Shown: positions 1,710-41,334 of the stretch, piece by piece
Layout: every line of letters begins with the position of its first letter
How positions within the stretch are numbered: position 1 is the stretch's first letter
Source of the DNA: Bacteroidetes bacterium UBA3022
GTDB taxonomy: Bacteria > Bacteroidota > Bacteroidia > Chitinophagales > BACL12
Reading direction: 5' to 3'
Assembly (NCBI GenBank): GCA_002346225.1
Contig: DDYY01000056.1
Span: 11,132 to 75,131 of the forward strand
DNA: 64,000 nt
Made by a program: the position numbers and the translations under genes
The notes under the pieces: generated by a model
Databases searched by the model: none
What the model was told of the DNA's origin: nothing
The model's input: only the letters and a program-made list of their open reading frames with translations

Positions 1710-1777
1710 ATTAACATATGGTTTATGTTCAGTTTATATGAAAATAAGTGCTTTACATAATATATATAATAATAGTT

Positions 1778-4674: not shown

Positions 4675-6567
4675 ATGTTAAACTTTACAAGAACTACACT
4701 AATTGTTTGTTTTTTGCTGGTCTGTCAGCAATTGCTCATCGCGCAAACGGCCACCATTTCGGGGAATATTACAGATGTAAGAGCTTTAAGCGCCGACACT
4801 GTTTATACGCTCGAAGGCAAAGTATATATCAAGGACGGCGGCGTTCTTTTTATACCTCCGGGAACAATTATAAGAGGTGATAAGGATTCAAAAGGAATGC
4901 TTATTTGTACCAAAACGGGAATCCTTGCTGCACAGGGCACACCCGAACAGCCTATTATTTTTACTTCATCGGAAGCCATTGGAGAACGGCAGGCCGGTGA
5001 TTGGGGTGGTGTGGTATTTTGCGGAAATGCCGGCATTAACGCAACCGGTGGCTCGGCGTCATTACCCGGCTTAGACGCTGCTGATGGTGCATATGGCGGA
5101 GCTAACGCATTTGACTCAAGAGGTGGTTTACAATATGTTAGAATTGAATATGGCGGCGGTAGCTCAACACCTGCCAACAAACTGGCTGGCCTTACACTGG
5201 CAGGTGTAGGTCTTGGAACGCTTATTGAGAATGTAATGGTTTCATACAGTGGTGACGATGCTTTCGAAATAAGGGGTGGAACAATGAATGCCAAATACCT
5301 TGTTGCAAACGGATCCGTTGACGATGATTTTGAAACCGACTTAGGCTGGACTGGAAATATTCAATTTGCCGCAGGATATCGTGACCCTTCCTTAGGTGAC
5401 GCATCGGGCTCCAATGGTTTCGAAAGTGATAACGATGACACAGGCTCCGCCAATACGCCTAAAACAAATGGCGTTTTTTCTAACGTAACCTTATTAGGCC
5501 CTATTCAGGATATTTTTACAGAATACGATGCGAATTACAAGCGAGCAGCACATCTGAAAAATAACACAGAGTTGAAAATTTTTAATTCAATTCTTGGTGC
5601 TTACCCTGTCGGCTTAATGGTAGATGGTATGGATTGTGAGGCAAATGCTGATCTTGACTTTATCAAAGTTAAGAATAGTGCAATTGCCATTATTACCGAT
5701 TCTTTGGTTGAAAATCAGTTACTTGAAACACAATTGAGCAGCTTATGGAATATTGAGAGCTGGTATAATACACCGGAGTTTGATAATTTCCAATTTGACA
5801 GTATATCCGGCATTGGTTTTGTAGATCCCTTCAATGCTACGAAACCAGACTTGAGGTTTGAATCTACTTCACCATTGGCCGTTGCCGGTGCAAGTTTTGA
5901 TGATACTGATCTTGATCCAACCTTTTTCATCCCTACTACCTACATAGGTGCATTTGGACAGGTAGAAAACTGGTTTGGGTGCTGGGTAAACTTCATTCCG
6001 CAAGAAACTAATTATGATTTTCCGGGTACAACACTTGCTCCAACAATTGCCTTCTTTTCTTTTGAAACAGACTCGGGTAGCCTAACTATTGACTTCGTGA
6101 ATTTGTCCAGTTCATCTGATGCTTACTTTTGGAATTTTGGAATAGATTCTATCAACACTGATACCAGTTCCCTTGTCAATCCGTCCTTTACTTTTCCAGA
6201 CACAGGTACTTATTTTATTCAGCTTATAGCGTATGGCTGCACTGTTGATACTTTCATCACAGAACTTGTAATTACTCAGGAAGGCGGTTTACTTATTGAT
6301 GATATATCCTACATTGGTGAATTTAAAATATTCCCTAATCCGGCCAACGATCGGGCAACTATTGAAATCTATGCTACAAAGACTACTGAGGGTTTGATCA
6401 GCATATATGATCTGAAAGGCCAAATGATGCTTGAATCGATCAGGGGACAGTTATCTCCCGGAACAAATCATATAAACATGGATTTACAAACACTAAACCC
6501 AGGTGTATATATAGTTTACGTGTTCAACAATGGAATTGGCAGATCTGAACGACTGATAATTCAGTAG
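4675..6567 (+). CDS. Secreted protein paralogous to the 1-1649 product, with a PKD-like domain and a T9SS type-A C-terminal sorting domain
   Basis: Signal peptide ending LLIAQT. It shares motifs with ORF 1-1649 (see that entry). PKD-like segment FSFETDSGSLTIDFVNLSSSSDAYFWNFG...GTYFIQLIAYG. CTD FKIFPNPANDRATIEIY...PGVYIVYVFNNG..SERLIIQ. It starts 14 nt after the receptor gene. Confidence 0.7.
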   Translation: MLNFTRTTLIVCFLLVCQQLLIAQTATISGNITDVRALSADTVYTLEGKVYIKDGGVLFIPPGTIIRGDKDSKGMLICTKTGILAAQGTPEQPIIFTSSEAIGERQAGDWGGVVFCGNAGINATGGSASLPGLDAADGAYGGANAFDSRGGLQYVRIEYGGGSSTPANKLAGLTLAGVGLGTLIENVMVSYSGDDAFEIRGGTMNAKYLVANGSVDDDFETDLGWTGNIQFAAGYRDPSLGDASGSNGFESDNDDTGSANTPKTNGVFSNVTLLGPIQDIFTEYDANYKRAAHLKNNTELKIFNSILGAYPVGLMVDGMDCEANADLDFIKVKNSAIAIITDSLVENQLLETQLSSLWNIESWYNTPEFDNFQFDSISGIGFVDPFNATKPDLRFESTSPLAVAGASFDDTDLDPTFFIPTTYIGAFGQVENWFGCWVNFIPQETNYDFPGTTLAPTIAFFSFETDSGSLTIDFVNLSSSSDAYFWNFGIDSINTDTSSLVNPSFTFPDTGTYFIQLIAYGCTVDTFITELVITQEGGLLIDDISYIGEFKIFPNPANDRATIEIYATKTTEGLISIYDLKGQMMLESIRGQLSPGTNHINMDLQTLNPGVYIVYVFNNGIGRSERLIIQ

Positions 6568-6642: not shown

Positions 6643-7533
6643 TTACTGCATATTAAGTTTATAACTCTTATACAGCGAGTTGACAATTCCATCAGAAAGT
6701 CCCTGTTTCGGTACATATATCTTGTCTATACCGGCCCACTTTAAAGCGTTGATATAAATGCGCAAAGCAGGAACGATAACATCGGCCCTATCGGGTTTCA
6801 ATCCGAGATCTCTTACTCTTTCTACCATAGATAAGCCATCGATATAAGCCATTACCTTTTTAAGCGTTGCGGGCGCAAGGTAAAGCTTACCCTGCTTGCC
6901 GTACATCTTCATCACTTTATTGATATTTCCACCTACGCCGATGGCGGTCAACCCCGGAAAGTCCGCCTTGACCTCCATGAGCCATTTCATCAATACTTTC
7001 CAGGCATCGTCTGTAACTGTATCATTGAGCAATCGCAGGGTACCAATGTTGGCAGAGTAATTCCTCAGCATATCGCCACCACTCAGCAAGGCGAATTCTG
7101 TACTACCGCCACCTACATCAATATACAGGTAATTACCCAGGGGGTCTATCCCCGCCTGCTTCAGTGGGTATTGCATGATGAGAGAAGCCTCTGCTTCCCC
7201 CGGTAAAATTTCAATTTCAATACCTGCCTTCTCTCTTACCAGACGCAATATTTCAGCGCCGTTTTCTGCATCCCGCATAGCCGAGGTGGCGCATGCCTTA
7301 TATGCATTGGCTTTGTGAATATCGATGAGCATCCGCATGACAGTCATGGTCTTAATGACCTGCTCTACCTTCTCATCCGAGATTCTTCCTGCAAGAAATG
7401 CATCCTCTCCTAACCTCACCGGCACCCTCAGTAATTCATCTTTGTGGAATACAGGCCCATTTTTCGTTTCATAAACATTCACAAACAATAGCCTTATAGC
7501 ATTACTTCCGATATCAATAGCAGCAAACTTCAC
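6643..7533 (-). CDS. ppx: Ppx/GppA family exopolyphosphatase (short, about 300-aa form)
   Basis: N-terminus MKFAAIDIGSNAIRLLF and DVGGGSTEF are actin-like ATPase-fold phosphate motifs typical of Ppx/GppA. It lies 12 nt downstream of ppk1 on the same strand. Confidence 0.85.
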   Translation of the reverse strand: MKFAAIDIGSNAIRLLFVNVYETKNGPVFHKDELLRVPVRLGEDAFLAGRISDEKVEQVIKTMTVMRMLIDIHKANAYKACATSAMRDAENGAEILRLVREKAGIEIEILPGEAEASLIMQYPLKQAGIDPLGNYLYIDVGGGSTEFALLSGGDMLRNYSANIGTLRLLNDTVTDDAWKVLMKWLMEVKADFPGLTAIGVGGNINKVMKMYGKQGKLYLAPATLKKVMAYIDGLSMVERVRDLGLKPDRADVIVPALRIYINALKWAGIDKIYVPKQGLSDGIVNSLYKSYKLNMQ

Positions 7534-7545
7534 TTCTCTTGGGTA

Positions 7546-9624
7546 TTAGGTTTCTGATTCACTAAAGTGCTTAAAGTATTCATAGATGGCGATCTGACTT
7601 CTCACAGGAGCATCTTCATTTTCTGGCTGAATGTACTCATTTAAATGATATTGTGAAAGATTCCGGGCCTTCATATTATCCTTCCATTGTATCTCCAAAA
7701 TGTCAATCAGCTGTTGCCGGATTTCTTCATCCAATACTTTTACCAGCACTTCCACCCTGTTATCGATATTTCGTTCCATCATATCTGCAGAGCCAATGAA
7801 TACCTCTTCTTTACCCTTATTGTGAAAATATAATATCCTGGGGTGCTCCAGAAATTTATCCAATATACTAATGGCTTTGATGTTCTCGCTCATTCCTTTC
7901 ACCTCAGGAACAATGGAACAGGCACTTCTTACTATGAGTCGAATCTTTACACCTGCATTACTAGCCTCGTATAGCAAAGCAACAATTTCCCGGTCAATAA
8001 GGTTGTTCACTTTGATATAGATAGAGGCAGGAGCGCCGCTCTTCGCATGCTTTATTTCTCTGTTGATAAGCTGTCGGAGTTTCCTTCGAAGATGTATAGG
8101 AGCCATGAGAATATTTTTATATGCTCCTATTTCATATTGATTTTCAAAAAATCCAAACACCATCTTCATTTCTTTAATAATAGATGGCCGGGTGGTCATC
8201 AACATGACATCCGTATAGAGTTTTGCTGTCTTTTCATTGAAATTACCCGTTCCAATGATGCCGTAGTGCACTTCGGTATTACCCACCTGTTCACGGACAA
8301 TGCACAACTTAGCATGCACCTTCAGTTTATTCACACCGAATATCACCTTCACACCTTCTTCCTGCAGGCGATTCGCCCAATAGATATTATTCTCCTCATC
8401 GAAACGCGCCTGTAATTCCATCACCACCGTCACCTGCTTTCCGTTGCGAGCTGCATTGATGAGGGACAAGGCTACACTGGAGTTGCTGGCCACGCGATAC
8501 AGCGTCATCTGTATATGCGTTACAGACGGATTAATGGCCGCTTCCCTTAAAAAATCAATGACATGGTTGAATGTCTGATAGGGAAAGTGCAGCATGATAT
8601 CCTTCTTCCTGACAACCTGAAAAACACTTGTATGTGGCATCAGCATGGGATGCGCCACAGGTGGATGCACGCGGTACCGCAAGCCTATCCGCTGCAGGTC
8701 AGGGAAATTGATAAAGTCCTTGAAGTTGTGGTAACGCGCTCCGGGAATTAAAGCGTCGTCCTTATGCAACTTCATCTTTCGGACAAAAAAGTCGAGCATT
8801 TCTCGCGGCATCTCGGCATCGTAGATGAACCTCACAGGCTCTCCTTTGACACGCCGTTTGACACTCTTCTGAATGAGTTCTATGAGACTCTGGGATAAAT
8901 CACTGTCAATGTCCAGTTCTGCATCCCTTGTAATCTTAATGGTATAGGCATCCATTCTGTCGAAGTCGAAAATCTGATAGACAGAACGAAGGTTGTAGCG
9001 AATGACATCATCGAGTAATATGATGAACTTCTTATTGCCTATATCCGGCAGAACAAAAAAGCGGGAGGGCTCTCCATCCGGAACTTCTATAAGTGAAAAC
9101 CGGGGCAGCTGACCTTCCTTCAACAATCGCACGGCCAGATAGATGGAGGAGTCACTTAACACCGGCAATTTCGTTTCCTGGTCAATCATGATCGGGAAAA
9201 GCCTGGGTCGGACACTGTCATTGAAATATTGACGAACTACCTCACCCTGCTCATCAGACAATTGCGATTCATTCAACAAAAAGATATCTTCTTTTTCGAG
9301 CTCTTTCAAAATCTCCAGATAGGAATTATCAAACCTGTTTTTCAATACCAGAATTTTCTTTTGAATCTGGCTGATAACCTTGGTGGGGTTGATTTCAAAT
9401 TCCCTGATTTTAGAGCGTTGCAGTTTTGCCATGCGCCTTAGGGTTGCCACCCTTACGCGAAAGAACTCATCCTGATTATTGGAGAAAATACCCAGAAAAC
9501 GCACCCGCTCGTTCAACGGCACACGTTTATCTTCTGCCTCCTGCAAAACCCTTTCGTTAAACGATAACCAACTGATATCCCTGTGGATATATTTAAATGC
9601 GGCAGCTTTCCCCTTCTTTCCCAT
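7546..9624 (-). CDS. ppk1: Polyphosphate kinase 1
   Basis: 692 aa. Motifs RDISWLSFNERVLQEA, ERVRFLGIFSNNQDEFFRVRV and two PLD-like segments (KVHAKLCIV; FIGSADMMERN..NRVEV). Confidence 0.95.
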   Translation of the reverse strand: MGKKGKAAAFKYIHRDISWLSFNERVLQEAEDKRVPLNERVRFLGIFSNNQDEFFRVRVATLRRMAKLQRSKIREFEINPTKVISQIQKKILVLKNRFDNSYLEILKELEKEDIFLLNESQLSDEQGEVVRQYFNDSVRPRLFPIMIDQETKLPVLSDSSIYLAVRLLKEGQLPRFSLIEVPDGEPSRFFVLPDIGNKKFIILLDDVIRYNLRSVYQIFDFDRMDAYTIKITRDAELDIDSDLSQSLIELIQKSVKRRVKGEPVRFIYDAEMPREMLDFFVRKMKLHKDDALIPGARYHNFKDFINFPDLQRIGLRYRVHPPVAHPMLMPHTSVFQVVRKKDIMLHFPYQTFNHVIDFLREAAINPSVTHIQMTLYRVASNSSVALSLINAARNGKQVTVVMELQARFDEENNIYWANRLQEEGVKVIFGVNKLKVHAKLCIVREQVGNTEVHYGIIGTGNFNEKTAKLYTDVMLMTTRPSIIKEMKMVFGFFENQYEIGAYKNILMAPIHLRRKLRQLINREIKHAKSGAPASIYIKVNNLIDREIVALLYEASNAGVKIRLIVRSACSIVPEVKGMSENIKAISILDKFLEHPRILYFHNKGKEEVFIGSADMMERNIDNRVEVLVKVLDEEIRQQLIDILEIQWKDNMKARNLSQYHLNEYIQPENEDAPVRSQIAIYEYFKHFSESET

Positions 9625-33706: not shown

Positions 33707-34285
33707 ATGTCAAAGCGAAATAACATTTTATTCTTAGCTCTCTTTCTGCTACCGTTTTGTCTGAGCGCCCAAACAGCCAGCTATAAAGTTTCGGGTAGTT
33801 CCAAGATGAAAATCACAGGAAGCTCCAATGTACATGAATGGGAAGAAAATGTTAACAAAACAACCGGAAACGCCAGCATGGATGCATCTGAAAATTTTCA
33901 GATTGACCAACTGGTATTCAAGGCTGAAGTAACCTCCATCAAGAGCACCAAAGGCTCTATCATGGATAACAAGACATATGAGGCTCTTAAGTCTGATAAG
34001 CATCCCTACATCATATTCGAACTCGACAAGGTTTTGAAAGCATCACCTGTTTCAGGAGGCTACTGGCTGAACACACAAGGCTATCTGACAATTGCAGGAA
34101 CCAAAAAACTGGTAAAGTTGGATGTTAAAGCCATTCTTAACAGTGATGGAAGCATTGCATTCGAAGGAACCAAAGTATTCAATATGTCTGAGTTCGGTAT
34201 CGATCCCCCCACTGCTATGATGGGCAGTATGAAGGTGGGTGATGAAGTGAAAATTCAATTTAAAATCTATTACAATAAGTATTAA
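33707..34285 (+). CDS. YceI-family (lipid/polyisoprenoid-binding lipocalin-like) secreted protein
   Basis: Signal peptide. YKVSGSSKMKITGSSNVHEW...DKHPYIIFEL...LTIAGTKKLVKLDV...FGIDPP...VGDEVKIQFKI has the YceI-like domain layout. Confidence 0.75.
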   Translation: MSKRNNILFLALFLLPFCLSAQTASYKVSGSSKMKITGSSNVHEWEENVNKTTGNASMDASENFQIDQLVFKAEVTSIKSTKGSIMDNKTYEALKSDKHPYIIFELDKVLKASPVSGGYWLNTQGYLTIAGTKKLVKLDVKAILNSDGSIAFEGTKVFNMSEFGIDPPTAMMGSMKVGDEVKIQFKIYYNKY

Positions 34286-34315: not shown

Positions 34316-35722
34316 ATGAGAGACCTAACCAAATATGCAAAAGCCATGCTCATGTCAGCAATGATTCTGGCAACAACAGCTGTTATGGCACAGCAACCCG
34401 GCATATCCCACTTCAGAGGCTACGACAAGAGCGCAGTCAACCAGTTTGAAACATCTAAAGACGACATTCAGCCATTCAATGGGCTAAAAGTTCGCGTAGG
34501 TGGAAGCTTTACCCAGACTTTCCAGGCTTTAAATCATGAAAACGTTTTGGACACTGTTGCCGCACAATTTATTGATAATAACGGCGACGGTACGGATGAC
34601 CGTGAATTATATCCATTAGCTCCTGGTTTCAACCTGGCAGAAGCCAATTTAAACCTTGATGTTCAACTGGCAAAAGGTATCCGTTTATCACTGGAAACCT
34701 ATTTGTCCACTCGTCACCACTCAGAAGCATGGGTGAAAGGCGGTTACATCCAGGTAGATAATCTTCCTTTCGGAGATGAAAACAGTTTCTTCAATCAGCA
34801 TATGTTCGTTAAAGTAGGACACATGGAAATCAACTATGGTGATGGCCATTTCCGTCGCTCCGATGCTGGTAATACTTTCCAGAATCCATTTATGGAAGGT
34901 TACATTATGGATGCTTTCACCACTGAAATCGGCGGTGAAGTCTATTACACCAATAATGGTTTACTCGTTATGTTGGGTGCCACCGGTGGTGAGATCAAAG
35001 GCAACGTATTCAGGGAATCAGCTCTGGACCCTGCATCTAACCTCGATCCTACTCAACTCGATACCAATAGAAGAGCACCTTCTATCCTGGCAAAACTGGG
35101 TTACGACAAACAACTGAACAGCGATTTAAGAGTTCGCATCACCGGTTCATTGTATACTACCTCCAGCTCCAACAGGAATACACTTTATGGTGGCGACCGC
35201 TCCGGTTCTGACTACCATCTGGTAATGGAAAACACAGCTGCCAGCTCTGGTTCCAATTTTACCTCAGGCCGCTATAACCCAGGCTTTACCGATCAGGTTA
35301 CTTCTATCATGATTAACCCATTCGTGAAATTCCAGGGATTAGAATTATTCGTCACCTATGAAATGGCCAGTGGTCGTTCATTATTCGAACCTGCTCCTAC
35401 TGAAGGTGCTGAAGATATCGACGAAACAAGGGCTGCTACCCAAATTGCTGCCGACCTGATTTACCGTTTCGGTTCCAATGAAAACTTCTACGTAGGTGGT
35501 CGTTACAATACATTGACTGCACAATACCGCGATGTTGATGACTTGATTCTGTCTGATGGAACTATTAACAGGATTGCAGCTGTATTTGGCTGGTTTGTTA
35601 CCGACAATATCCTTGCAAAAGTGGAATACGTTCAACAAAGCTATGATGGATTCCCTGCAACCTCTATCTTCAATGAAGGCCAGTTCAGTGGTATTATGCT
35701 GAGCGGTGCCGTTGGTTTCTAA
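34316..35722 (+). CDS. Putative outer-membrane beta-barrel / porin-like protein
   Basis: Signal peptide (AVMAQQ). Alternating hydrophobic pattern throughout. C-terminal LSGAVGF ends in Phe. A strong terminator follows. Confidence 0.5.
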   Translation: MRDLTKYAKAMLMSAMILATTAVMAQQPGISHFRGYDKSAVNQFETSKDDIQPFNGLKVRVGGSFTQTFQALNHENVLDTVAAQFIDNNGDGTDDRELYPLAPGFNLAEANLNLDVQLAKGIRLSLETYLSTRHHSEAWVKGGYIQVDNLPFGDENSFFNQHMFVKVGHMEINYGDGHFRRSDAGNTFQNPFMEGYIMDAFTTEIGGEVYYTNNGLLVMLGATGGEIKGNVFRESALDPASNLDPTQLDTNRRAPSILAKLGYDKQLNSDLRVRITGSLYTTSSSNRNTLYGGDRSGSDYHLVMENTAASSGSNFTSGRYNPGFTDQVTSIMINPFVKFQGLELFVTYEMASGRSLFEPAPTEGAEDIDETRAATQIAADLIYRFGSNENFYVGGRYNTLTAQYRDVDDLILSDGTINRIAAVFGWFVTDNILAKVEYVQQSYDGFPATSIFNEGQFSGIMLSGAVGF

Positions 35723-35742
35723 TATTTGTTTGTTATAATTGA

Positions 35743-35770
35743 CCTCCCGGTATACGCCGGGAGGTTTTTT
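35743..35770 (+). terminator. Rho-independent terminator
   Basis: Stem cctcccgg (35743-35750) / ccgggagg (35757-35764), loop tatacg, T6 tract at 35765-35770. Confidence 0.8.
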
Positions 35771-35773
35771 ATT

Positions 35774-36370
35774 ATGAAAAAAGCTCCCTTCCTATTCCTG
35801 CTGATCCTGCTGCATAGTATGACCATCCATGCTCAGCATCAGCAACGGTACACCTGCAGACTCATTCAGGCTAAGGAGCTGGCACTTTTCGGCACATCGA
35901 ATACGGTCGATTTTACCTGCGGGTACAAAGCACCCTACTCCAAAAAACAAATTGCCTTTGTTCAGGTCAACCAGCGGAATCTGGAACAGTTTCCTGAAAT
36001 TCAACTTCGTGTTCGTCAACTGGACTGTGGCAGCTCAGGTATCAACTACGACATGCAAAAAACGCTGCAGGCAAGTAAATACCCTTCCATACTCCTGCAG
36101 CCTGTGCGCGCTTTCAGCGACTTTTCCCTTTCCTCCCAACAGCAAGGCGAGATTCAAATCTGGATTACCATTGCCGGTAAAAAACAACTTGAAAAAGTCT
36201 CCGTAGAATTGACCCCGCTTGGTAATGACCGCTTCCGTATACAAGGCCGCCACTGGCTCTCCTTTACCAGATATGGCATGGATCCTCCTAAAGCACTCTT
36301 CGGATTGGTGCGCGTCGATGATAAACTACTGCTCAAATTTGACCTCGAAATCGAGCTTATTCCTTCCTGA
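35774..36370 (+). CDS. Divergent YceI-like secreted protein
   Basis: Signal peptide MKKAPFLFLLILLHSMTIHAQ. Colinear with the 33707 product: LFGTSNTVDF / ITGSSNVHEW, KYPSILLQP / KHPYIIFEL, ITIAGKKQLEKVSVEL / LTIAGTKKLVKLDVKA, YGMDPP...VDDKLLLKFDL / FGIDPP...VGDEVKIQFKI. Confidence 0.55.
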   Translation: MKKAPFLFLLILLHSMTIHAQHQQRYTCRLIQAKELALFGTSNTVDFTCGYKAPYSKKQIAFVQVNQRNLEQFPEIQLRVRQLDCGSSGINYDMQKTLQASKYPSILLQPVRAFSDFSLSSQQQGEIQIWITIAGKKQLEKVSVELTPLGNDRFRIQGRHWLSFTRYGMDPPKALFGLVRVDDKLLLKFDLEIELIPS

Positions 36371-36429
36371 CCAATCAATATATTACCTGAAGGTAGCATA
36401 AGCCGCTTTGTGGATTGTGGTTCGGGTGG

Positions 36430-36437
36430 TACATTTG
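36430..36437 (+). promoter_or_regulatory. Bacteroidota -7 box (TAnnTTTG) for the VTC operon
   Basis: tacatttg lies 12 nt upstream of the ATG at 36450. The GTG at 36408 is upstream of this box and therefore an unlikely start. Confidence 0.45.
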
Positions 36438-36449
36438 CTTGTTAATTTA

Positions 36450-36851
36450 ATGTTAATGCGAAAAGGTTTAATCCCAATTATTATTGGCATGTTGGCGCTT
36501 ATAGGCGGCTGCGAGTTAGGGCCCGGAGAAGGCGGTCGGTCTGCCATAACCGGTAAAGTCTTTATGGAAGAGTACAACAGCGCCGGCTCACTGATAAAAG
36601 ACTATTATATCGCCGATGAACGCGTGTACATAATTTACGACGATGGAGATACCTATCATGATGAATTCCGAACCAGCTTCGATGGGAGCTATCGTTTTGA
36701 ATTCCTGAGAAAAGGCAACTACAGAATTTTCGCCTATTCCGAATGTCTGGGTTGCCCAGGCTCAACAGAGCCATCCATCATAGAGATTTCTATTGATAAG
36801 AACGGAGAAGAAATTGTAGCGGAGGATATTGTAATTAAAAAATGGAACTAA
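36450..36851 (+). CDS. Lipoprotein with a carboxypeptidase-regulatory/transthyretin-like beta-sandwich signature
   Basis: Lipobox LALIGGC. ITGKVF...DGSYRFEFLRKGNYRIFAY pattern. It overlaps the next gene by 10 nt. Confidence 0.5.
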   Translation: MLMRKGLIPIIIGMLALIGGCELGPGEGGRSAITGKVFMEEYNSAGSLIKDYYIADERVYIIYDDGDTYHDEFRTSFDGSYRFEFLRKGNYRIFAYSECLGCPGSTEPSIIEISIDKNGEEIVAEDIVIKKWN

Positions 36852-37606
36852 ACCTCTCCGCTCTGCAAATGCTCCAGCCCATATCTCTGGAAGAAATGGA
36901 TGCCGTTGCATTGCTCAATAGAAAAGATACCAAGTTTGTATTCCCGCTCGCACGGCTTTCAGCAGTGCTGGAACAGCTATCTGACAGCTACCGCGTTCTG
37001 ACCATCAACAACAAACGCTGGACAGAATACGATAATTTATACTTCGATACACCCGAGCGATACTGCTACTACCAGCACCATAACCGCAGACTGAACCGCT
37101 TCAAGTTCCGCATCCGGGAATATGTGGGCAGCGACCTCGCCTTCTTTGAAATCAAATTCAAAAGCAACCGGGAAAGAACTATTAAGTCGCGCATGAAAAT
37201 CCCCTCCTCCGTCAGAGAGCTTACCGGAGAAATTGCAGCGTTTATTCGCGAGAAAAGTCCCTTCAATCCGGAAGAGATGGAACCATCCATTTCCATAGGG
37301 TTCACCAGAATTACACTCGTGAGTCACGACCTGACTGAACGCGCAACATTGGACATAGGCTTGGAAGCAAGTGGTAATAACAAAATGGTGCAGTTCAATA
37401 ATATTGTCATAGCTGAATTGAAACAGGATGGCATTATCTCTGGCTCGCAATTCAAGGTCGCATTACGCATGAATAACAGCATTGAACAAAGGATCAGTAA
37501 ATACTGTATCTGCCTATCCAGAACAGAGCCTGAACTCAAGTCCAATCTCTTCAAACCTAAACATCTGAATATTAATAAACTTAAAAAATTCGTAGCAAAT
37601 GAATGA
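36842..37606 (+). CDS. VTC-domain protein (CYTH-like triphosphate tunnel; polyphosphate-polymerase-domain protein)
   Basis: RKDTKFVF, DNLYFDTPE, FKFRIREY, FFEIKFK and VIAELKQD correspond to the conserved tunnel strands of the VTC/Vtc4 catalytic domain. There is no TM segment. Confidence 0.8.
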   Translation: MELNLSALQMLQPISLEEMDAVALLNRKDTKFVFPLARLSAVLEQLSDSYRVLTINNKRWTEYDNLYFDTPERYCYYQHHNRRLNRFKFRIREYVGSDLAFFEIKFKSNRERTIKSRMKIPSSVRELTGEIAAFIREKSPFNPEEMEPSISIGFTRITLVSHDLTERATLDIGLEASGNNKMVQFNNIVIAELKQDGIISGSQFKVALRMNNSIEQRISKYCICLSRTEPELKSNLFKPKHLNINKLKKFVANE

Positions 37607-38216
37607 AGAAAATGACTTCCGGATCATGGAAATAAAGCTCTTTGACAACGATTTCTATGACTACATACTGCGATACGCTTTTAACGTGTTGATGGCATTT
37701 ATTCTGCTGAAATTCATTTACAGGAGCGACAAGAAAAACAGGAATTACGCCTTTACTTTCTACGTCTTCAACACCCTGATTTTCTTTCTTTGCTATTTGA
37801 TGAATAATGTGAAACTCGACCTCGGCTTTGCATTTGGTTTGTTTGCCGTATTCAGTATTCTACGGTACCGAACCAGTGCCATACCTATGAAAGAAATGAC
37901 CTATTTGTTTCTGGTAATTGGTATTGCCGTCATCAATGCTTTAACAACTAAGAAAGTCAGTTTTGTTGAGCTGCTTTTCACCAATGCAGCCATCCTAACC
38001 GTAACCTATATACTAGAACGCCTCTGGTACAAAGAAGGGTTAACCGAGCGCATCGTAGAGTACGAAAAAATTGAAAATATCAAACCTGAAAACAGCGAAC
38101 TCATGCTGGCAGACCTTCGGTCCAGAACAGGTCTGGATATCAGGGAATTTGAAATCCTGCAGGTAGATTTTGTCAGGGACCTGGCAAGAGTCAGAATATA
38201 CTACAAGTACCAGTAA
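37599..38216 (+). CDS. DUF4956-type integral membrane protein
   Basis: Four to five hydrophobic helices (VLMAFILLKFIY, FYVFNTLIFFLCYLM, FAFGLFAVFSILRYRT, YLFLVIGIAVINAL, LLFTNAAILTVTYIL) and a soluble C-terminal part of about 60 aa. ATGAATGA overlap with the VTC gene. Confidence 0.7.
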   Translation: MNEENDFRIMEIKLFDNDFYDYILRYAFNVLMAFILLKFIYRSDKKNRNYAFTFYVFNTLIFFLCYLMNNVKLDLGFAFGLFAVFSILRYRTSAIPMKEMTYLFLVIGIAVINALTTKKVSFVELLFTNAAILTVTYILERLWYKEGLTERIVEYEKIENIKPENSELMLADLRSRTGLDIREFEILQVDFVRDLARVRIYYKYQ

Positions 38217-38848
38217 TGCGCCTGAAACTGCATATTGCGTTGCTGCTTTCTATGGGAAGTCTGGCTGCTGCCGCACAACAGCAGCGCTATAGTGCATGGC
38301 TGGAAGCGAAAACAGAAATAGAGCTTTTTAAGGATGTAGATTTGACCATAACGCAAATGTTTCGCTCCGACCTGCTGCCCTACTCCTTTGGGCAGGTGAA
38401 CACAGAACTCTCCGCATCATATAAGTTGAATAAGCATTGGCGTGTAGGTGCCGAATATCGCTATATACAGACAGATAACCAACAGCGCAACAGGTATGCG
38501 ATTTCTGCCAAATACAGAGACGGAATAAACGATTTCGAGTTAGCCATCCGCAGTCAATACCAGATGGAAACCAGCTCTACTGCACTGCCGGAATACGTAT
38601 TCCGCAATAAAGGGTCTTTGGGCTACGAATTAACAAAAGACCTGATGCCTTATATGGCGTTTGAACTTTTCTACCGGCAGTACTTTAGGGAAAATATCTT
38701 CGATGAATACAGACTTGCAGGAGGACTCGAATGGGAACTAAACAAGCATAATGATGTTGATATATTCTACATCTATAGTCGTGAATTCAATGTCAGCAAT
38801 CCGGACTTTCGCCACATATTTGGATTATCGTATAAGTACAATTGGTAA
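38216..38848 (+). CDS. DUF2490-like outer-membrane beta-barrel protein
   Basis: Signal peptide MRLKLHIALLLSMGSLAAAAQQ. Amphipathic beta-strand pattern. C-terminal LSYKYNW is aromatic. TAATG junction with the preceding gene. Confidence 0.6.
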   Translation: MRLKLHIALLLSMGSLAAAAQQQRYSAWLEAKTEIELFKDVDLTITQMFRSDLLPYSFGQVNTELSASYKLNKHWRVGAEYRYIQTDNQQRNRYAISAKYRDGINDFELAIRSQYQMETSSTALPEYVFRNKGSLGYELTKDLMPYMAFELFYRQYFRENIFDEYRLAGGLEWELNKHNDVDIFYIYSREFNVSNPDFRHIFGLSYKYNW

Positions 38849-39134
38849 ATACTGTGCGCTGGTTATTTTAGTGGGTTGCAGCCAAACGGCATCGTCTCAG
38901 TTGCAGATTCAAATGCCCGAATCAATTCCTTCCTATCAGTTGAGTCTTCCTCTACCATTCAACGCGATGAAACGGGACCTTTCCTTTTCCTCCAATGCAA
39001 CTCCTGCCATTACTCCTGCTTTGCCGCCCTATCCTTTTGTATTTGTACCATCTTATCAACTGGGCTTCTTTTGTAAATTCGAAGACGCTATCAACAGAAA
39101 CCGAAAATGGCGCATTGATTTTGGCACCGACTGA
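38790..39134 (+). CDS. Small hypothetical lipoprotein (start uncertain)
   Basis: The only ATG giving a signal peptide is at 38790 (…KYCALVILVGC, lipobox LVGC), and it overlaps the DUF2490 gene by 59 nt. The alternative GTG at 38871 lacks a signal peptide. The conserved-looking C-terminus is YQLGFFCKFEDAI..RKWRIDFGTD. Confidence 0.35.
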   Translation: MSAIRTFATYLDYRISTIGKYCALVILVGCSQTASSQLQIQMPESIPSYQLSLPLPFNAMKRDLSFSSNATPAITPALPPYPFVFVPSYQLGFFCKFEDAINRNRKWRIDFGTD

Positions 39135-39140
39135 CGGCTC

Positions 39141-39872
39141 ATGCAAAACAATCCTTTGCTTCAACCTATAATGTCAACGTGCACTTCATTGCTGGAAACT
39201 ATTACCCAAAAAATCAGTGTAGTAGAAGGAAAAGGCGTTTGGCTACAAGACTTCTGGCACGCTGAAGCAGGAACAAATGGCACCATCCTTACTTTGGAAA
39301 ATGCCAATATTTTTGAAAAAGCTATGGCTGAATCCTATTCCTGCAATAATACAGATTGCAGATCAGCCGGCTTTACCCTTGCTTTGCACCCTCACCATCC
39401 ATTGGTACCTGTATGGATCTGTCAATTGCATTTTTACCTTTCAGAAAAAGGTACCGTTCAGTATAGGGGTAATCTTATACAATACAGCTATGCACCGGCA
39501 GGCTGGATGCCGTCAGAAGCAATAACAAGCTCCACGGATATCGGTAGCCTGTTATTACAGCAATTAAAGTCTGAGTTGGTAGGTCCATCCATTTTGCAGA
39601 TTACATCGAGCAGAGGCGCGGATAGCAGCCAACAGAGTACACTACCGGAGCTGTTGAATAAGCTGATGCGTTTATTGATGGATCAATATCTGGAAATTGT
39701 TAATGAGCTGCAGGATAAACCGACAGATGCTGCTATGAAAAAGGCCCATCATCAACAACGATTAGAATGGAATCGCTTTCTTCAAGAAGAAGAAAATAAG
39801 GCTAATTGGAAACCAAGCCACTCATTCCCGAAGGTTAGCAGGGAGATGATTTATGCTCCAGCAAACGATTAA
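39141..39872 (+). CDS. Degenerate coproporphyrinogen-III-oxidase (HemF)-like protein
   Basis: By eye it is colinear with E. coli HemF: DFWHAEAGTNG / DSWQREAGGGG, IFEKA / VFEQA, LALHPHHPLVPVWICQLHFY / [20 protein letters not shown], YLEIV / YLPIV. It lacks WWFGGG.DLTP and RRGRYVEFNL and is about 55 aa shorter. Confidence 0.4.
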   Translation: MQNNPLLQPIMSTCTSLLETITQKISVVEGKGVWLQDFWHAEAGTNGTILTLENANIFEKAMAESYSCNNTDCRSAGFTLALHPHHPLVPVWICQLHFYLSEKGTVQYRGNLIQYSYAPAGWMPSEAITSSTDIGSLLLQQLKSELVGPSILQITSSRGADSSQQSTLPELLNKLMRLLMDQYLEIVNELQDKPTDAAMKKAHHQQRLEWNRFLQEEENKANWKPSHSFPKVSREMIYAPAND

Positions 39873-40324
39873 TCGCAGATAAGCGAAAGATTGGGTGTGC
39901 GAATTTCATTGCTCCAGTTACCTGCCCTGTCCCGAATCTGTATAGTGTAGTAAAAGGTATCTACGTCAACCGGATTAATACATTGGGAAATACCCCTTAC
40001 GGCATAAATATTACCCGAAATGGCTGTGTGGTTTCCCTGTAATTCGATGTAGGGAATTTTAGCACCGATTCTGAATCCTGGAACCCGGCTGTCTTCCCAG
40101 AAGAGATTGAGAGAGTCCACATCCTCACCGCCTATATCGCCATCGCCATCTTCAAAGTAGATGTTAACTCTCAGACTGTCGGGATCAAACTCTACAAAAC
40201 TCACCTTATTGACTTCCACCAATTCAATCCTGGGTTCCACTGGATATTCCGGTGGTTTTACACACGAATTAAATCCGGTAATGAGAAAAGCAGCAGCCGA
40301 TATGGTCAAAAGAGTCTTTAACAT
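39869..40324 (-). CDS. Hypothetical lipoprotein
   Basis: Signal peptide with lipobox (ITGFNSC). Beta-rich. Its stop codon shares the TTAA at 39869-39872 with the convergent gene. Confidence 0.5.
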   Translation of the reverse strand: MLKTLLTISAAAFLITGFNSCVKPPEYPVEPRIELVEVNKVSFVEFDPDSLRVNIYFEDGDGDIGGEDVDSLNLFWEDSRVPGFRIGAKIPYIELQGNHTAISGNIYAVRGISQCINPVDVDTFYYTIQIRDRAGNWSNEIRTPNLSLICD

Positions 40325-40371: not shown

Positions 40372-41334
40372 GTGAAAATAGTTCGGGAATTATTGGAAGG
40401 ACAGCCGGTAGATTTTGAGGAAGCTGCATTGAGCTGTTTCCATTATCAACTGGAAAACAATGCCCTGTACCGACAATGGTGCCAGGGAATTGGAAGAACC
40501 AAGCCCAAGTCCCTTTCAGAAATTCCGTTTTTACCGGTTGAGCTGTTCAGAAACCATACGGTAGTGAGTGCCCCTCCTCCTTATCAATTGAGCTTCATGA
40601 GCAGCGGAACCACTTCAACTGCGCGGTCCAGACATTTCGTAAAGTCTACAGATTGGTATAAAAAAAGTTTCCTGACGACATTTATGCATTTTTATGGATC
40701 TCCTGCCAGGTACCGGCTCATTTGCCTGCTCCCTTCTTATGCTCCGGAAAGCTCGTTGATATATATGTGCTCAGAATTGATTCGCGCCAGCAAACATCCT
40801 GATAGTGGCTTCTACCTTGAAGACCCAGAGCGCATGCATGAAATTTTACACAAAGAGGATAATCAACGCACCACACTGCTGCTGGGCGTAACCCATGCAC
40901 TGCTGGATCTTGCCGAACAAACTACACTTAATCATGAGCACTTAATTGTAATGGAAACGGGTGGCATGAAAGGTCGCAGGAAGGAAATGGTCAGAGCAGA
41001 GGTACACCGGATTTTACAACAAGCCTTTGGCGTGGCTGCCGTTCACTCCGAATACGGCATGACGGAGCTGCTATCCCAGGCTTACTCATCCGGCATGGGC
41101 TTGTTCACCTGTCCTCCCTGGATGAAAGTAATCTCACGAGATGCAGAAGACCCCTTTGAACTGCTGGAAAGCGGGCAAAGGGGATTACTGAATATAATAG
41201 ACCTCGCGAATATAGATTCCTGCTGCTTTATCGCTACTCAAGATACCGGTTTGGTACATTCTGATGGTCGATTTGAAGTTACCGGACGTTCCGATAACAG
41301 TGATATCAGGGGATGCAACCTACTTCTTCAGTGA
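40372..41334 (+). CDS. LuxE/PaaK-like acyl-adenylate-forming enzyme (acyl-protein synthetase family)
   Basis: GTG start. FHYQ..NN.LY..W, FMSSGTTSTARSRHF, METGGMKG and SEYGMTELLSQ motifs. Confidence 0.55.
   Translation: MKIVRELLEGQPVDFEEAALSCFHYQLENNALYRQWCQGIGRTKPKSLSEIPFLPVELFRNHTVVSAPPPYQLSFMSSGTTSTARSRHFVKSTDWYKKSFLTTFMHFYGSPARYRLICLLPSYAPESSLIYMCSELIRASKHPDSGFYLEDPERMHEILHKEDNQRTTLLLGVTHALLDLAEQTTLNHEHLIVMETGGMKGRRKEMVRAEVHRILQQAFGVAAVHSEYGMTELLSQAYSSGMGLFTCPPWMKVISRDAEDPFELLESGQRGLLNIIDLANIDSCCFIATQDTGLVHSDGRFEVTGRSDNSDIRGCNLLLQ

Follow-up and report, generated by a model that had tools for sequence, protein, structure and literature searches.

Does this locus encode a second bacterial route to make, and perhaps export, polyphosphate (polyP)? 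Bacterial polyP is ascribed almost wholly to PPK1 and PPK2. VTC is treated as eukaryotic in reviews of its evolution (PMC10657179), and in a 2026 preprint Bacillus cereus is described as having extracellular polyP that depends on neither PPK and has no known source (10.64898/2026.08.04.742738). In the 64-kb stretch analyzed here (the window), which comes from an abundant type of marine or brackish Bacteroidota, an operon pairs a yeast-type polymerase domain with a membrane protein, a barrel and lipoproteins, and is therefore a good candidate for such a second route. The relevant features are these:

6643-7533, minus strand: ppx (Pfam)
7546-9624, minus strand: ppk1 (Pfam)
35741..35766, plus strand: intrinsic terminator of the upstream porin-like gene (11-bp stem with 7 GC pairs, then a T-run)
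36407..36437, plus strand: putative Bacteroidota-type promoter (TTTG at 36407-36410, 19 nt, TACATTTG at 36430-36437)
36450..36851, plus strand: small acidic lipoprotein, 133 aa (lipobox LIGG followed by C; ATG at 36450, alternative ATG at 36456)
36842..37606, plus strand: VTC-domain protein, 254 aa, predicted catalytic subunit (PF09359, AF2 model, Foldseek)
37599..38216, plus strand: DUF4956 inner-membrane protein, 205 aa (PF16316, AF2 model, hydropathy)
38216..38848, plus strand: DUF2490 outer-membrane beta-barrel, 210 aa (PF10677, OMP_b-brl, signal peptide, C-terminus YKYNW)
38751..39134, plus strand: small secreted protein or lipoprotein (lipobox LVG followed by C; start uncertain)

The canonical ppk1 and ppx genes that an earlier, sequence-only reading had placed in the window were both confirmed by Pfam, and no PP_kinase or PPK2 domain was detected by Pfam in the operon products. 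That reading had also proposed that four plus-strand genes overlap at every junction, which the open reading frames and the sequence bear out, with overlaps of 10, 8 and 1 nt in order down the operon. The lipoprotein stop codon (36849-36851) lies beyond the VTC ATG at 36842, the VTC stop codon (37604-37606) lies beyond the DUF4956 ATG at 37599 (ATGAATGA), and the final base of the DUF4956 TAA, at 38216, is the first base of the DUF2490 ATG (TAATG). The four genes would be best explained as one transcription unit. The gene at 38751-39134 is probably part of the unit in this lineage; each of the five closest loci carries a homologue in the corresponding place.

The terminator claimed upstream is real and forms an upstream boundary. 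The YceI-like gene at 35774-36370, which lies between this terminator and the operon, had been described as divergent; it is instead encoded on the plus strand in the same orientation as the operon. Its product has no Pfam YceI match of its own, and the kinship holds in that it is a diverged paralogue of the true YceI-domain gene at 33707-34285 (BLASTP E 9e-12). The TAnnTTTG box expected at 36430 is present as TACATTTG, and with the TTTG element it can be read against the -33/-7 consensus of Bacteroides promoters, ending 12 nt upstream of the first ATG of the operon. Single motifs of this type show no enrichment in the window, with 53 occurrences against 51.7 expected, and the composite motif occurs twice (1.3 expected); a promoter here is thus plausible from its position only.

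Conservation was assessed in 80 related genome loci from several phyla, seven of them from Chloroflexota. DUF4956 lies directly downstream of VTC on the same strand in 79 of the 80, and its start overlaps the VTC stop in 67 of these 79, so that the expectation of conserved synteny in related genomes was strongly borne out. These data bear directly on the view that the genes are neighbors by chance and form no functional unit. The promoter motif taken alone occurs at chance frequency and the products other than the VTC protein are individually without assigned function, as this view would have it, but every junction overlaps, and gene order and overlaps are conserved across the 80 loci and several phyla; we consider coincidence extremely improbable.

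The VTC protein is predicted to be a soluble triphosphate tunnel metalloenzyme of the Vtc4 polyphosphate-polymerase type, with a catalytic role. Its match to the Pfam VTC family (PF09359; 81.3 bits against a cut-off of 23, E 1e-22) spans residues 26-225 and profile positions 1-231 of 235; matches to VTC, DUF4956 and DUF2490, as anticipated, all exceed the Pfam gathering cut-offs. Pfam finds no domain besides VTC, and no SPX domain, in this protein, and its hydropathy profile contains no hydrophobic segment. All of the Vtc4-type motifs proposed for it are present: RKDTKF (27-32), LYFDT (66-70), KFRIREY (88-94), FFEIKFK (101-107) and VIAELK (189-194). In a Foldseek search of the PDB, the AF2 model (pLDDT 90.2, pTM 0.88) finds Vtc4 entries at the top (3g3r, 8i6v and 3g3q; E 6e-11, TM 0.66), ahead of Vtc2/3, YgiF and CYTH proteins. 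The closed beta-tunnel fold of the model is thus closest to that of the Vtc4 catalytic domain.

Profile alignment to yeast Vtc4 with hhalign places K200, R264 and R266 at K31, R90 and R92, K281, K294 and R373 at K105, K115 and R167, and E426 and K458 at E192 and K220; the C-terminal part of this alignment is weak alone (E 0.045), although the order is the same and it is consistent at motif level. Invariant residues in 40 homologues include K31, R90, R92, E103, K105, K115, R167, E192, K194, S219 and K220, so the conserved tunnel Lys, Arg and Glu residues, on which the sequence-only reading had relied, are retained. In Vtc4, R264, R266 and E426 are the residues of a published inactivating triple mutant (PMC9911596), and K458 is termed catalytic (PMC4641920).

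Most characterized bacterial tunnel enzymes, including the YgiF and CYTH proteins among the structural matches, are hydrolases or cyclases, and the VTC protein might likewise be a membrane-held hydrolytic or cyclizing enzyme (a tripolyphosphatase, a polyphosphatase or a nucleotide-triphosphate enzyme) that acts in phosphate homeostasis or signaling rather than as a polymerase. AtTTM3 shares the Vtc4 tunnel center and yet makes no polyP (PMC4641920). The acidic patch of hydrolytic tunnel enzymes consists of four Glu residues, which are replaced by basic residues in Vtc4 (PMC4641920). Three of the four positions could be compared: R27 (Vtc4 R196) and K194 (Vtc4 K428) are basic, as in Vtc4, which makes a full second metal site unlikely, whereas the invariant D29 stands at the position of Vtc4 T198 (Glu-4 in AtTTM3), which the second glutamate of ExExK occupies in hydrolases. 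The equivalent of catalytic K458 is invariant, and that lysine is dispensable for hydrolysis by AtTTM3 (PMC4641920); in sequence and fold, moreover, the protein is nearer to Vtc4 than to any hydrolase. A hydrolytic or cyclizing role is quite improbable. Sequence and fold give good support to polymerase chemistry, and from them we infer the activity itself; in the literature, bacterial VTC-domain proteins have no known enzyme activity.

The DUF4956 protein matches PF16316 over the full profile (173.7 bits against a cut-off of 30.6, E 3.6e-51), in agreement with its proposed assignment as a DUF4956-type protein with four to five transmembrane helices. Its AF2 model, which is only moderate (pLDDT 70), consists of five predicted helices and a C-terminal beta-alpha-beta-beta domain of ACT-like appearance; the resemblance to ACT domains in the fold search is weak and non-significant. 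The invariant residues are L88-R-Y-R-T92, E99, E124 and E140, and the conserved residues of the membrane region are acidic as well as basic. Neither profile search nor fold search identified a significant PDB relative, no other membrane family exceeds the Pfam threshold, and the protein is unrelated to the Vtc1-type membrane domain. The Streptococcus intermedius homologue has been described as four transmembrane helices with an ACT domain, and an MgtC-like character has been suggested for it (PMC12345266). No similarity to MgtC was detected for the protein of this operon: there is no MgtC match in Pfam up to E 5 and no significant PDB match. The DUF4956 protein is predicted to serve the VTC protein as membrane partner or conduit.

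The acidic as well as basic membrane residues of DUF4956, its C-terminal domain, the architecture reported for the S. intermedius homologue and the lack of any sign of a pore suit a narrower role, in which the VTC protein makes polyP, DUF4956 is only an anchor or regulator (an ACT-like ligand sensor), the polymer stays at the cytoplasmic face, and the barrel and lipoproteins are merely co-regulated. The envelope genes argue against this. The first gene encodes a lipoprotein with the lipobox claimed for it (MLMRKGLIPIIIGMLALIGG followed by Cys); its homologues occur in 54 of the 80 loci, and 41 of these 54 have a lipobox-like Cys, followed mostly by K-K-E-x-G-E-G-G. Its mature part is acidic (pI 4.5), which makes it unlikely to bind polyP directly. 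It has beta-sandwich hints below threshold and no Pfam family (CarboxypepD_reg, 15.9 bits against a cut-off of 32.3).

The fourth product was correctly proposed to be a signal-peptide-bearing, DUF2490-like barrel: it matches PF10677 (61.4 bits against a cut-off of 29.8, E 1.2e-16) and OMP_b-brl (40.5 bits, E 4e-10), and has a signal-peptide-like N-terminus (MRLKLHIALLLSMGSLAAAAQQQ) and the C-terminus YKYNW. DUF2490 is classed as a putative outer-membrane porin family (TC 1.B.81) whose pore function is not established (PMC4827864), and a buried charge network has been reported for some members. A further small lipoprotein had been predicted to follow; the gene and its lipobox are present, but the start is uncertain and the product may be a secreted protein or a lipoprotein. 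It belongs to no Pfam family and carries the conserved C-terminal motif GxFCxFEDxINRxRKxRIDF.

Among the 52 loci outside Chloroflexota that have long enough flanks, DUF2490 is present in 45 and the lipoprotein in 42, and neither was found in the seven Chloroflexota loci. In six loci the lipoprotein–DUF2490 pair has been relocated as a unit, still within the cluster, and in a different lineage a TPR-plus-YaiO outer-membrane barrel precedes VTC–DUF4956. Unrelated envelope or secreted partners thus recur (DUF2490 with the lipoprotein, the TPR-YaiO barrel and CotH), and a product that never leaves the cytoplasm would be hard to reconcile with them. In addition, free cytosolic polyP is described as harmful in eukaryotes, where synthesis is coupled to translocation. 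The anchor or regulator role is therefore rated unlikely.

CotH kinases had been named as companions of VTC and DUF4956 in some genomes. A CotH kinase gene is indeed present in the cluster in at least 21 of the 80 loci, including four of the seven Chloroflexota loci. CotH carries a type IX secretion tail in the one Bacteroidota representative that was scanned, and some CotH proteins follow a lipobox-like segment. A natural DUF4956–TM–CotH fusion occurs on six contigs, with loci from two independent assemblies, and adjoins VTC and a second CotH gene. These observations raise the prospect that the core job of VTC–DUF4956 is to furnish polyP or a short chain as extracellular phosphoryl donor to a secreted CotH kinase. 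Such a kinase would phosphorylate surface proteins or polysaccharides, and in this genome its gene would lie elsewhere or have been lost. Gram-positive cotH–VTC–DUF4956 clusters adjoin pel (PMC7112168), and deletions of the DUF4956 and CotH genes reduce Pel-dependent aggregation in S. intermedius (PMC12345266), in keeping with this idea. However, no CotH is known to use polyP as a donor, and the lack of a CotH gene here was confirmed: an HMM built from the CotH proteins of relatives matches only secretion-tail proteins in the window, and no CotH was detected in flanks of up to 6 kb in the five closest loci, which indicates that the module can exist without an adjacent CotH. A donor role as the core function is distinctly unlikely.

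The reading that we prefer, held tentatively and at a little under even probability, is that the operon encodes, as a set of separate proteins, a bacterial equivalent of the eukaryotic VTC synthase-translocase for polyP, which feeds envelope parts and is distinct from ppk1–ppx. The VTC protein, produced in a fixed proportion with DUF4956, would dock on it and add the γ-phosphate of ATP to a growing polyP chain within the basic beta-tunnel. The probable topology of DUF4956 is five helices with an external N-terminus and a cytoplasmic, C-terminal ACT-like domain, and an oligomer of the protein may conduct the nascent polyanion out of the cytoplasm, aided by the membrane potential; docking and export are suggested by the invariant gene pairing and by analogy to Vtc4, which carries a membrane domain of its own. 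The lipoprotein and DUF2490 barrel of Bacteroidota, joined here by the further small secreted protein, would take up the polymer in the envelope, hold it there or hand it on, as their conserved linkage suggests. In many relatives the system may also serve a secreted CotH kinase. Export via DUF4956, any outer-membrane step and the coupling of synthesis to export across both membranes are suggested by context only.

In favor of the synthase-translocase reading are the Pfam and fold assignments, the active site, the gene overlaps with the VTC–DUF4956 linkage, the envelope link and the extracytoplasmic CotH. Counted against it are the invariant D29, the modest model of DUF4956 without PDB relatives (its channel role is putative) and without kinship to the Vtc1-type domain, the missing SPX domain, the putative nature of the DUF2490 pore with a buried charge network in some members, the acidity of the lipoprotein, and the rarity of VTC–DUF4956 fusions, of which one is a singleton and one a deletion chimera, both doubtful. 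A broader proposal extends the scheme to a widespread bacterial, PPK-independent, envelope-crossing polyP synthase in which VTC synthesizes, an oligomeric DUF4956 channel exports across the inner membrane, outer-membrane barrels follow and secreted CotH kinases draw on the product as donor. We regard it as improbable; if true, lineage-specific barrels would release polyP or display it on the cell surface, and the system would be the prokaryotic relative of the eukaryotic VTC machinery and the source of extracellular polyP. The VTC family is large, with 8,867 clusters at 50% identity; its retention of the Vtc4 catalytic residues and its pairing with one conserved membrane protein in nearly every locus make the module a concrete, testable candidate for PPK-independent synthesis and export. 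Surface or released polyP in the host, if real, would bear on phosphorus cycling and would help to make sense of secreted CotH kinases, for which no extracellular phosphoryl donor is otherwise obvious.

Four known systems can be compared with the operon. PPK1 is a PLD-like kinase with a phosphohistidine intermediate. PPK1/PPX and the operon share the proposed product (polyP) and phosphate source (ATP), whereas the operon enzyme is a tunnel metalloenzyme of unrelated fold and mechanism, and PPK1 lacks dedicated membrane or envelope partners.

The eukaryotic VTC complex (yeast Vtc4, Vtc1 and Vtc2/3; vacuole, acidocalcisome) has in common with the operon the Pfam VTC domain, the tunnel fold, the residues for catalysis and chain guidance (those equivalent to R264, R266, E426 and K458 among them), and a catalytic domain obligatorily paired with a membrane component. 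Unlike Vtc4, the bacterial protein has neither an SPX sensor nor a three-helix membrane domain in the same chain, and it carries the invariant Asp at T198. Its partner has five helices and an ACT-like domain instead of the three-helix Vtc1-type domain, the polymer would be destined for the periplasm or cell surface rather than an organelle lumen, and the operon adds an outer-membrane barrel and lipoproteins.

PgaA, BcsC and PelB are TPR-plus-barrel porins of synthase-dependent exopolymer secretion. The logic of such systems, with a cytoplasmic-face polymerase, an inner-membrane partner and an outer-membrane barrel in one operon, is alike, and the TPR-YaiO barrel of one VTC–DUF4956 lineage recalls the porin architecture. 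In contrast, the polymer of the operon would be inorganic, no glycosyltransferase or c-di-GMP receptor is encoded in the operon, and its barrel is of the small DUF2490 type without TPR repeats.

One precedent is Gram-positive. Genes for cotH, a 'polyphosphate polymerase' and DUF4956 have been listed as accessory genes beside Gram-positive pel operons (Whitfield 2020, PMC7112168; SIR_1592-1594 of S. intermedius, PMC12345266), and Clostridium perfringens NELoc-2 carries such module genes (PMC2879425). The earlier statement that bacterial VTC/DUF4956 modules have no defined function is essentially right, with these mentions and the S. intermedius deletion phenotype as the exceptions. The VTC–DUF4956 pair is the same in both settings, and CotH is found in the wider Bacteroidota and Chloroflexota clusters too, where in relatives of the operon it can have a type IX secretion tail. 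The window differs in having no CotH, DUF4832 or pel genes, and the operon adds a diderm-specific DUF2490 barrel, a lipoprotein and a small secreted protein. No description of this outer-membrane version was found in the literature. The VTC–DUF4956(–CotH) module is thus known from Gram-positive bacteria, and its outer-membrane form in Bacteroidota is a new and real variant with a predicted function.

The VTC operon is real. Four forward-strand genes, encoding a lipoprotein, a VTC-domain protein, a DUF4956 membrane protein and a DUF2490 protein, overlap at every junction (by 10, 8 and 1 nt in succession), as the sequence-only reading had described, and a small ORF follows. The features of the locus are:

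35741-35766: strong intrinsic terminator, the upstream boundary
35774-36370, plus strand: YceI-like gene between the terminator and the operon
36407-36437, plus strand: putative promoter (TTTG, 19 nt, then TACATTTG) inside the 79-nt gap before the lipoprotein gene
36450-36851, plus strand: lipoprotein gene (lipobox LIGG/C)
36842-37606, plus strand: VTC gene (254 aa; Pfam match)
37599-38216, plus strand: DUF4956 gene (205 aa; Pfam match)
38216-38848, plus strand: DUF2490 gene (210 aa; Pfam match)
38751-39134, plus strand: small ORF (lipobox-like LVG/C)
39869-40324, minus strand: 151-aa lipoprotein-like gene, convergent to the operon, the downstream limit

The VTC, DUF4956 and DUF2490 products match their Pfam profiles at 81, 174 and 61 bits, respectively, the last also matching a generic outer-membrane barrel model, and all scores lie far over the curated cut-offs. 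These matches confirm the earlier family calls, and the overlapping plus-strand genes, together with conservation of the gene set in relatives, confirm the operon reading; every peptide motif quoted at that stage is present in the products. Neither the lipoprotein nor the final small ORF falls into a Pfam family, none of the operon products has an NCBIfam model, and a PADLOC search returned no matches, hence nothing that ties the operon to known defence systems. The DUF4956 protein is identical to a database record from 'Sphingobacteriales bacterium BACL12 MAG-120813-bin55', a brackish-water member of the Bacteroidota. The VTC family has 8,867 representatives at 50% identity (E up to 0.001), with lengths of 226-322 aa among the 150 best-scoring, and the annotation 'polyphosphate polymerase domain-containing' is already in use for VTC homologues.

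The YceI-like gene, at first taken to be divergent, in fact shares the operon's strand. Its product has no Pfam YceI match of its own but is a diverged paralogue (E 9e-12) of that of a genuine YceI-domain gene at 33707-34285 (plus strand). The latter is followed by a gene for a 468-aa signal-peptide protein (34316-35722) that ends in F, has no Pfam family and is probably an outer-membrane barrel; the same trio of YceI gene, 468-aa protein type and diverged YceI paralogue precedes the operon in L001, one of the five closest related loci (L001-L005, all Chitinophagales). The TAnnTTTG box proposed upstream of the operon is present and plausible on its position, but its counts in the window are close to expectation (single motif, 53 vs 51.7 expected; composite motif, 2 vs 1.3 expected). 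Downstream, an ORF at 39141-39872 (plus strand) may be a hemF gene that is decaying or has diverged strongly: it can be aligned with full-length HemF-like (coproporphyrinogen III oxidase) genes that occupy the same position in L002-L005, several conserved internal segments are missing from it, and its Pfam Coprogen_oxidas match covers residues 14-64 only and is under the cut-off. L001-L005 also preserve, 3' of the operon, the pairing of the 151-aa minus-strand gene with a gene for a LuxE-like acyl-protein synthetase (40372-41334, plus strand).

A scan of one genome per species gave 565 relatives, and the best 80 loci were analysed. Of these best 80 of 565, 79 have DUF4956 immediately 3' of VTC and in the same orientation, and in 67 of the 79 its nearest ATG overlaps the VTC stop codon. 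The set includes 52 non-Chloroflexota loci with enough flank, of which 45 contain DUF2490 and 42 the lipoprotein; both are absent from all seven Chloroflexota loci of the set, which fits outer-membrane-specific parts. In six of the 80 loci, the lipoprotein-DUF2490 pair is shifted upstream as a unit and stays in the cluster, which points to a two-gene sub-module kept with VTC-DUF4956. In 46 of the best 80 loci (e.g., 5453-5983 of locus L056), a Sec-secreted protein about 177 aa long, without a Pfam family, is encoded between the lipoprotein and VTC genes; the window does not have it. L001-L005 have exactly the window arrangement, including the small downstream ORF. Synteny thus excludes, for practical purposes, the idea that the operon genes are neighbours by chance. 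Co-expression of VTC with one conserved inner-membrane protein is obligatory and probably stoichiometric, and the linkage to predicted envelope-exported proteins is demonstrably conserved.

An AlphaFold model of the VTC protein built from 40 homologues (pLDDT 90, pTM 0.88) has as its best solved-structure matches the catalytic domain of yeast Vtc4, the polyphosphate polymerase subunit, in crystals and in cryo-EM VTC complexes (E 6e-11, TM 0.66); non-catalytic Vtc2/3, Escherichia coli YgiF and CYTH enzymes rank below it. Vtc4 was not found by sequence similarity alone: phmmer with the single VTC sequence had no relevant match among PDB sequences, and the 40-sequence profile found only Vtc2 (E 0.096). 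The residues were therefore mapped by aligning the Vtc4 tunnel sequence (8i6v_E residues 189-482, identity confirmed) to the family profile with hhalign. This mapping pairs Vtc4 R196, K200, R264, R266, E279, K281, K294, R296, R361 and R373 with R27, K31, R90, R92, E103, K105, K115, R117, R156 and R167 of the VTC protein, respectively, and, in the C-terminal part, E426, K428, S457 and K458 with E192, K194, S219 and K220. The C-terminal pairs come from a separate local hhalign run (a global alignment was meaningless and was set aside); that segment is weak alone (E 0.045), and it follows the same order as the N-terminal segment with agreeing motifs (AVLEVK/VIAELK and FSKF/ISKY). All 14 mapped residues are invariant in the 40-sequence family alignment, so that the tunnel residues noticed at first as motifs are indeed kept.

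Several of these positions have known roles. R264A/R266A/E426N is a catalytically impaired Vtc4 mutant (PMC9911596), and Vtc4 K458 is described as the catalytic lysine, the equivalent of which a hydrolytic tunnel enzyme can do without (PMC4641920). Hydrolytic tunnel enzymes build a second metal site from four glutamates that make up an acidic patch, whereas Vtc4 has basic residues there that guide the exiting chain (PMC4641920). At these positions, the VTC protein has basic R27 and K194, as in Vtc4, and an invariant acidic D29 (Vtc4 T198), a mixed pattern that leans towards the polymerase type. D29 and the precedent of AtTTM3 favour a hydrolase, a reading that is nonetheless improbable. The mapping and the model together establish the VTC protein as a predicted Vtc4-type tunnel enzyme with its catalytic set intact.

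The DUF4956 protein was modelled with moderate confidence (pLDDT 70) as five helices (residues 19-41, 48-70, 75-91, 97-114 and 122-146) followed by a C-terminal beta-alpha-beta-beta domain. No significant fold match was found, a resemblance to ACT-type domains being weak and non-significant, and PDB sequences gave no match; a published 'MgtC-like' label was not reproduced, as there is no Pfam MgtC match. With one exception, loop charges agree with an N-out, C-in topology. This topology is supported by a natural fusion, on six contigs with loci from two independent assemblies, in which DUF4956 is followed by one hydrophobic lipobox-like segment and then by CotH, a kinase clustered with VTC-DUF4956 in some relatives; such an order supports a cytoplasmic DUF4956 C-terminal domain and an extracytoplasmic CotH. 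The topology would place the most conserved stretch (G-F-A-F-G-L-F-A-x-F-x-x-L-R-Y-R-T), with its L-R-Y-R-T end and E99, at the cytoplasmic face, where a docking site or channel mouth is expected. Between the same genomes, identity to the closest relatives is about 82-86% for DUF4956 vs 55-58% for VTC, and it is unusual for a membrane protein to be more conserved than the neighbouring enzyme. A search for natural fusions with an artificial VTC+DUF4956 concatenate as the query gave two apparent single chains, both set aside: P0241 (454 aa) is full-length and a singleton on a 2.5-kb contig, and P0242 (351 aa) is a deletion chimera without the VTC end and the first DUF4956 helices. Both may be sequencing or deletion artefacts.

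The reported lack of CotH is borne out across the 64-kb window, and no CotH was detected in the flanks (up to 6 kb) of L001-L005; CotH genes are present in at least 21 of the best 80 loci, in four Chloroflexota loci 3' of DUF4956. The sole Bacteroidota representative scanned (L054, 2836-5073) carries lamin-tail and type IX secretion sorting domains, the latter predicting export to the surface. A 559-aa secretion-tail protein at the CotH position in about 15 of the best 80 loci resembles CotH proteins only in the C-terminal tail region. A module that mainly feeds a secreted CotH kinase is attractive for the VTC-DUF4956 family overall but not evident in the CotH-less window, and is distinctly unlikely. 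Two metagenome contig loci (L081, 3997-9372, and L082) encode a TPR-plus-YaiO outer-membrane barrel, VTC, a 676-aa DUF4956-CotH fusion and a second CotH; a non-homologous barrel at the same operon position strengthens the envelope link. Elsewhere in the window, just upstream of ppx-ppk1, lie genes for two type IX sorting-domain proteins (one also with fibronectin type III repeats) with a TonB-dependent-receptor-like gene between them (90-1649, 1748-4660 and 4675-6567, plus strand). Type IX secretion cargo is thus encoded in this genome, though no CotH cargo in the window. The canonical ppk1 (7546-9624) and ppx (6643-7533) are confirmed, both on the minus strand.

The lipoprotein shows below-threshold hints of a carboxypeptidase-regulatory-like beta-sandwich. 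Its pI is 4.5 (family median, 5.1), and therefore polyphosphate binding would need bridging cations. A lipobox-like Cys is present in 41 of 54 homologues, mostly followed by a near-fixed K-K-E-x-G-E-G-G, the window counterpart being C-E-L-G-P-G-E-G-G; the residues after the Cys did not establish a surface-export signal. A buried charge network has been reported for some DUF2490 members, and the literature found demonstrates no pore function for the family. The small ORF and its L001-L005 homologues have a variable N-terminal signal region and a sharply conserved C-terminal LPxYxxGxFCxFEDxINRxRKxRIDF.

At the membrane's inner face, the VTC enzyme would polymerise ATP-derived phosphate. DUF4956 would form an oligomer that conducts the chain outward, and the membrane potential would favour this exit of a polyanion, as has precedent in the yeast VTC channel (PMC9911596). 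Handling of the polymer, periplasmic or at the surface, may then fall to the DUF2490 barrel with the lipoprotein and the small secreted protein; the absence of a shown pore, the buried charge network and the acidic lipoprotein make this the weakest step. Of the coupling of synthesis to export proposed earlier, the polymerase chemistry fits both sequence and fold, whereas DUF4956 export and the envelope steps stay at the level of prediction. DUF4956 might instead be an anchor or regulator of a polymer that stays intracellular, a possible though unlikely arrangement.

The operon is an instance of the bacterial VTC-DUF4956 gene pair, of which there are earlier reports. Clostridium perfringens NELoc-2 carries the pair, with the membrane gene labelled 'tubulin/FtsZ' (PMC2879425), and the pair adjoins Gram-positive pel operons (PMC7112168); in Streptococcus intermedius, deletions of the DUF4956 and CotH genes lowered Pel-dependent aggregation (PMC12345266). 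The sole Bacteroidota mention found is a Bacteroides thetaiotaomicron transcriptome table listing adjoining DUF4956 and DUF2490 genes (PMC10434189), and in the searchable literature no bacterial VTC-domain protein was found to have been studied biochemically. The operon would work like the eukaryotic VTC complex but is not a member of it: SPX and Vtc1-type membrane domains are both absent, and the partner protein differs. What is new is a diderm variant, of predicted function, that lacks CotH and has its own outer-membrane barrel and lipoproteins; the catalytic set is further shown to be intact, and the gene set to be conserved across many genomes.
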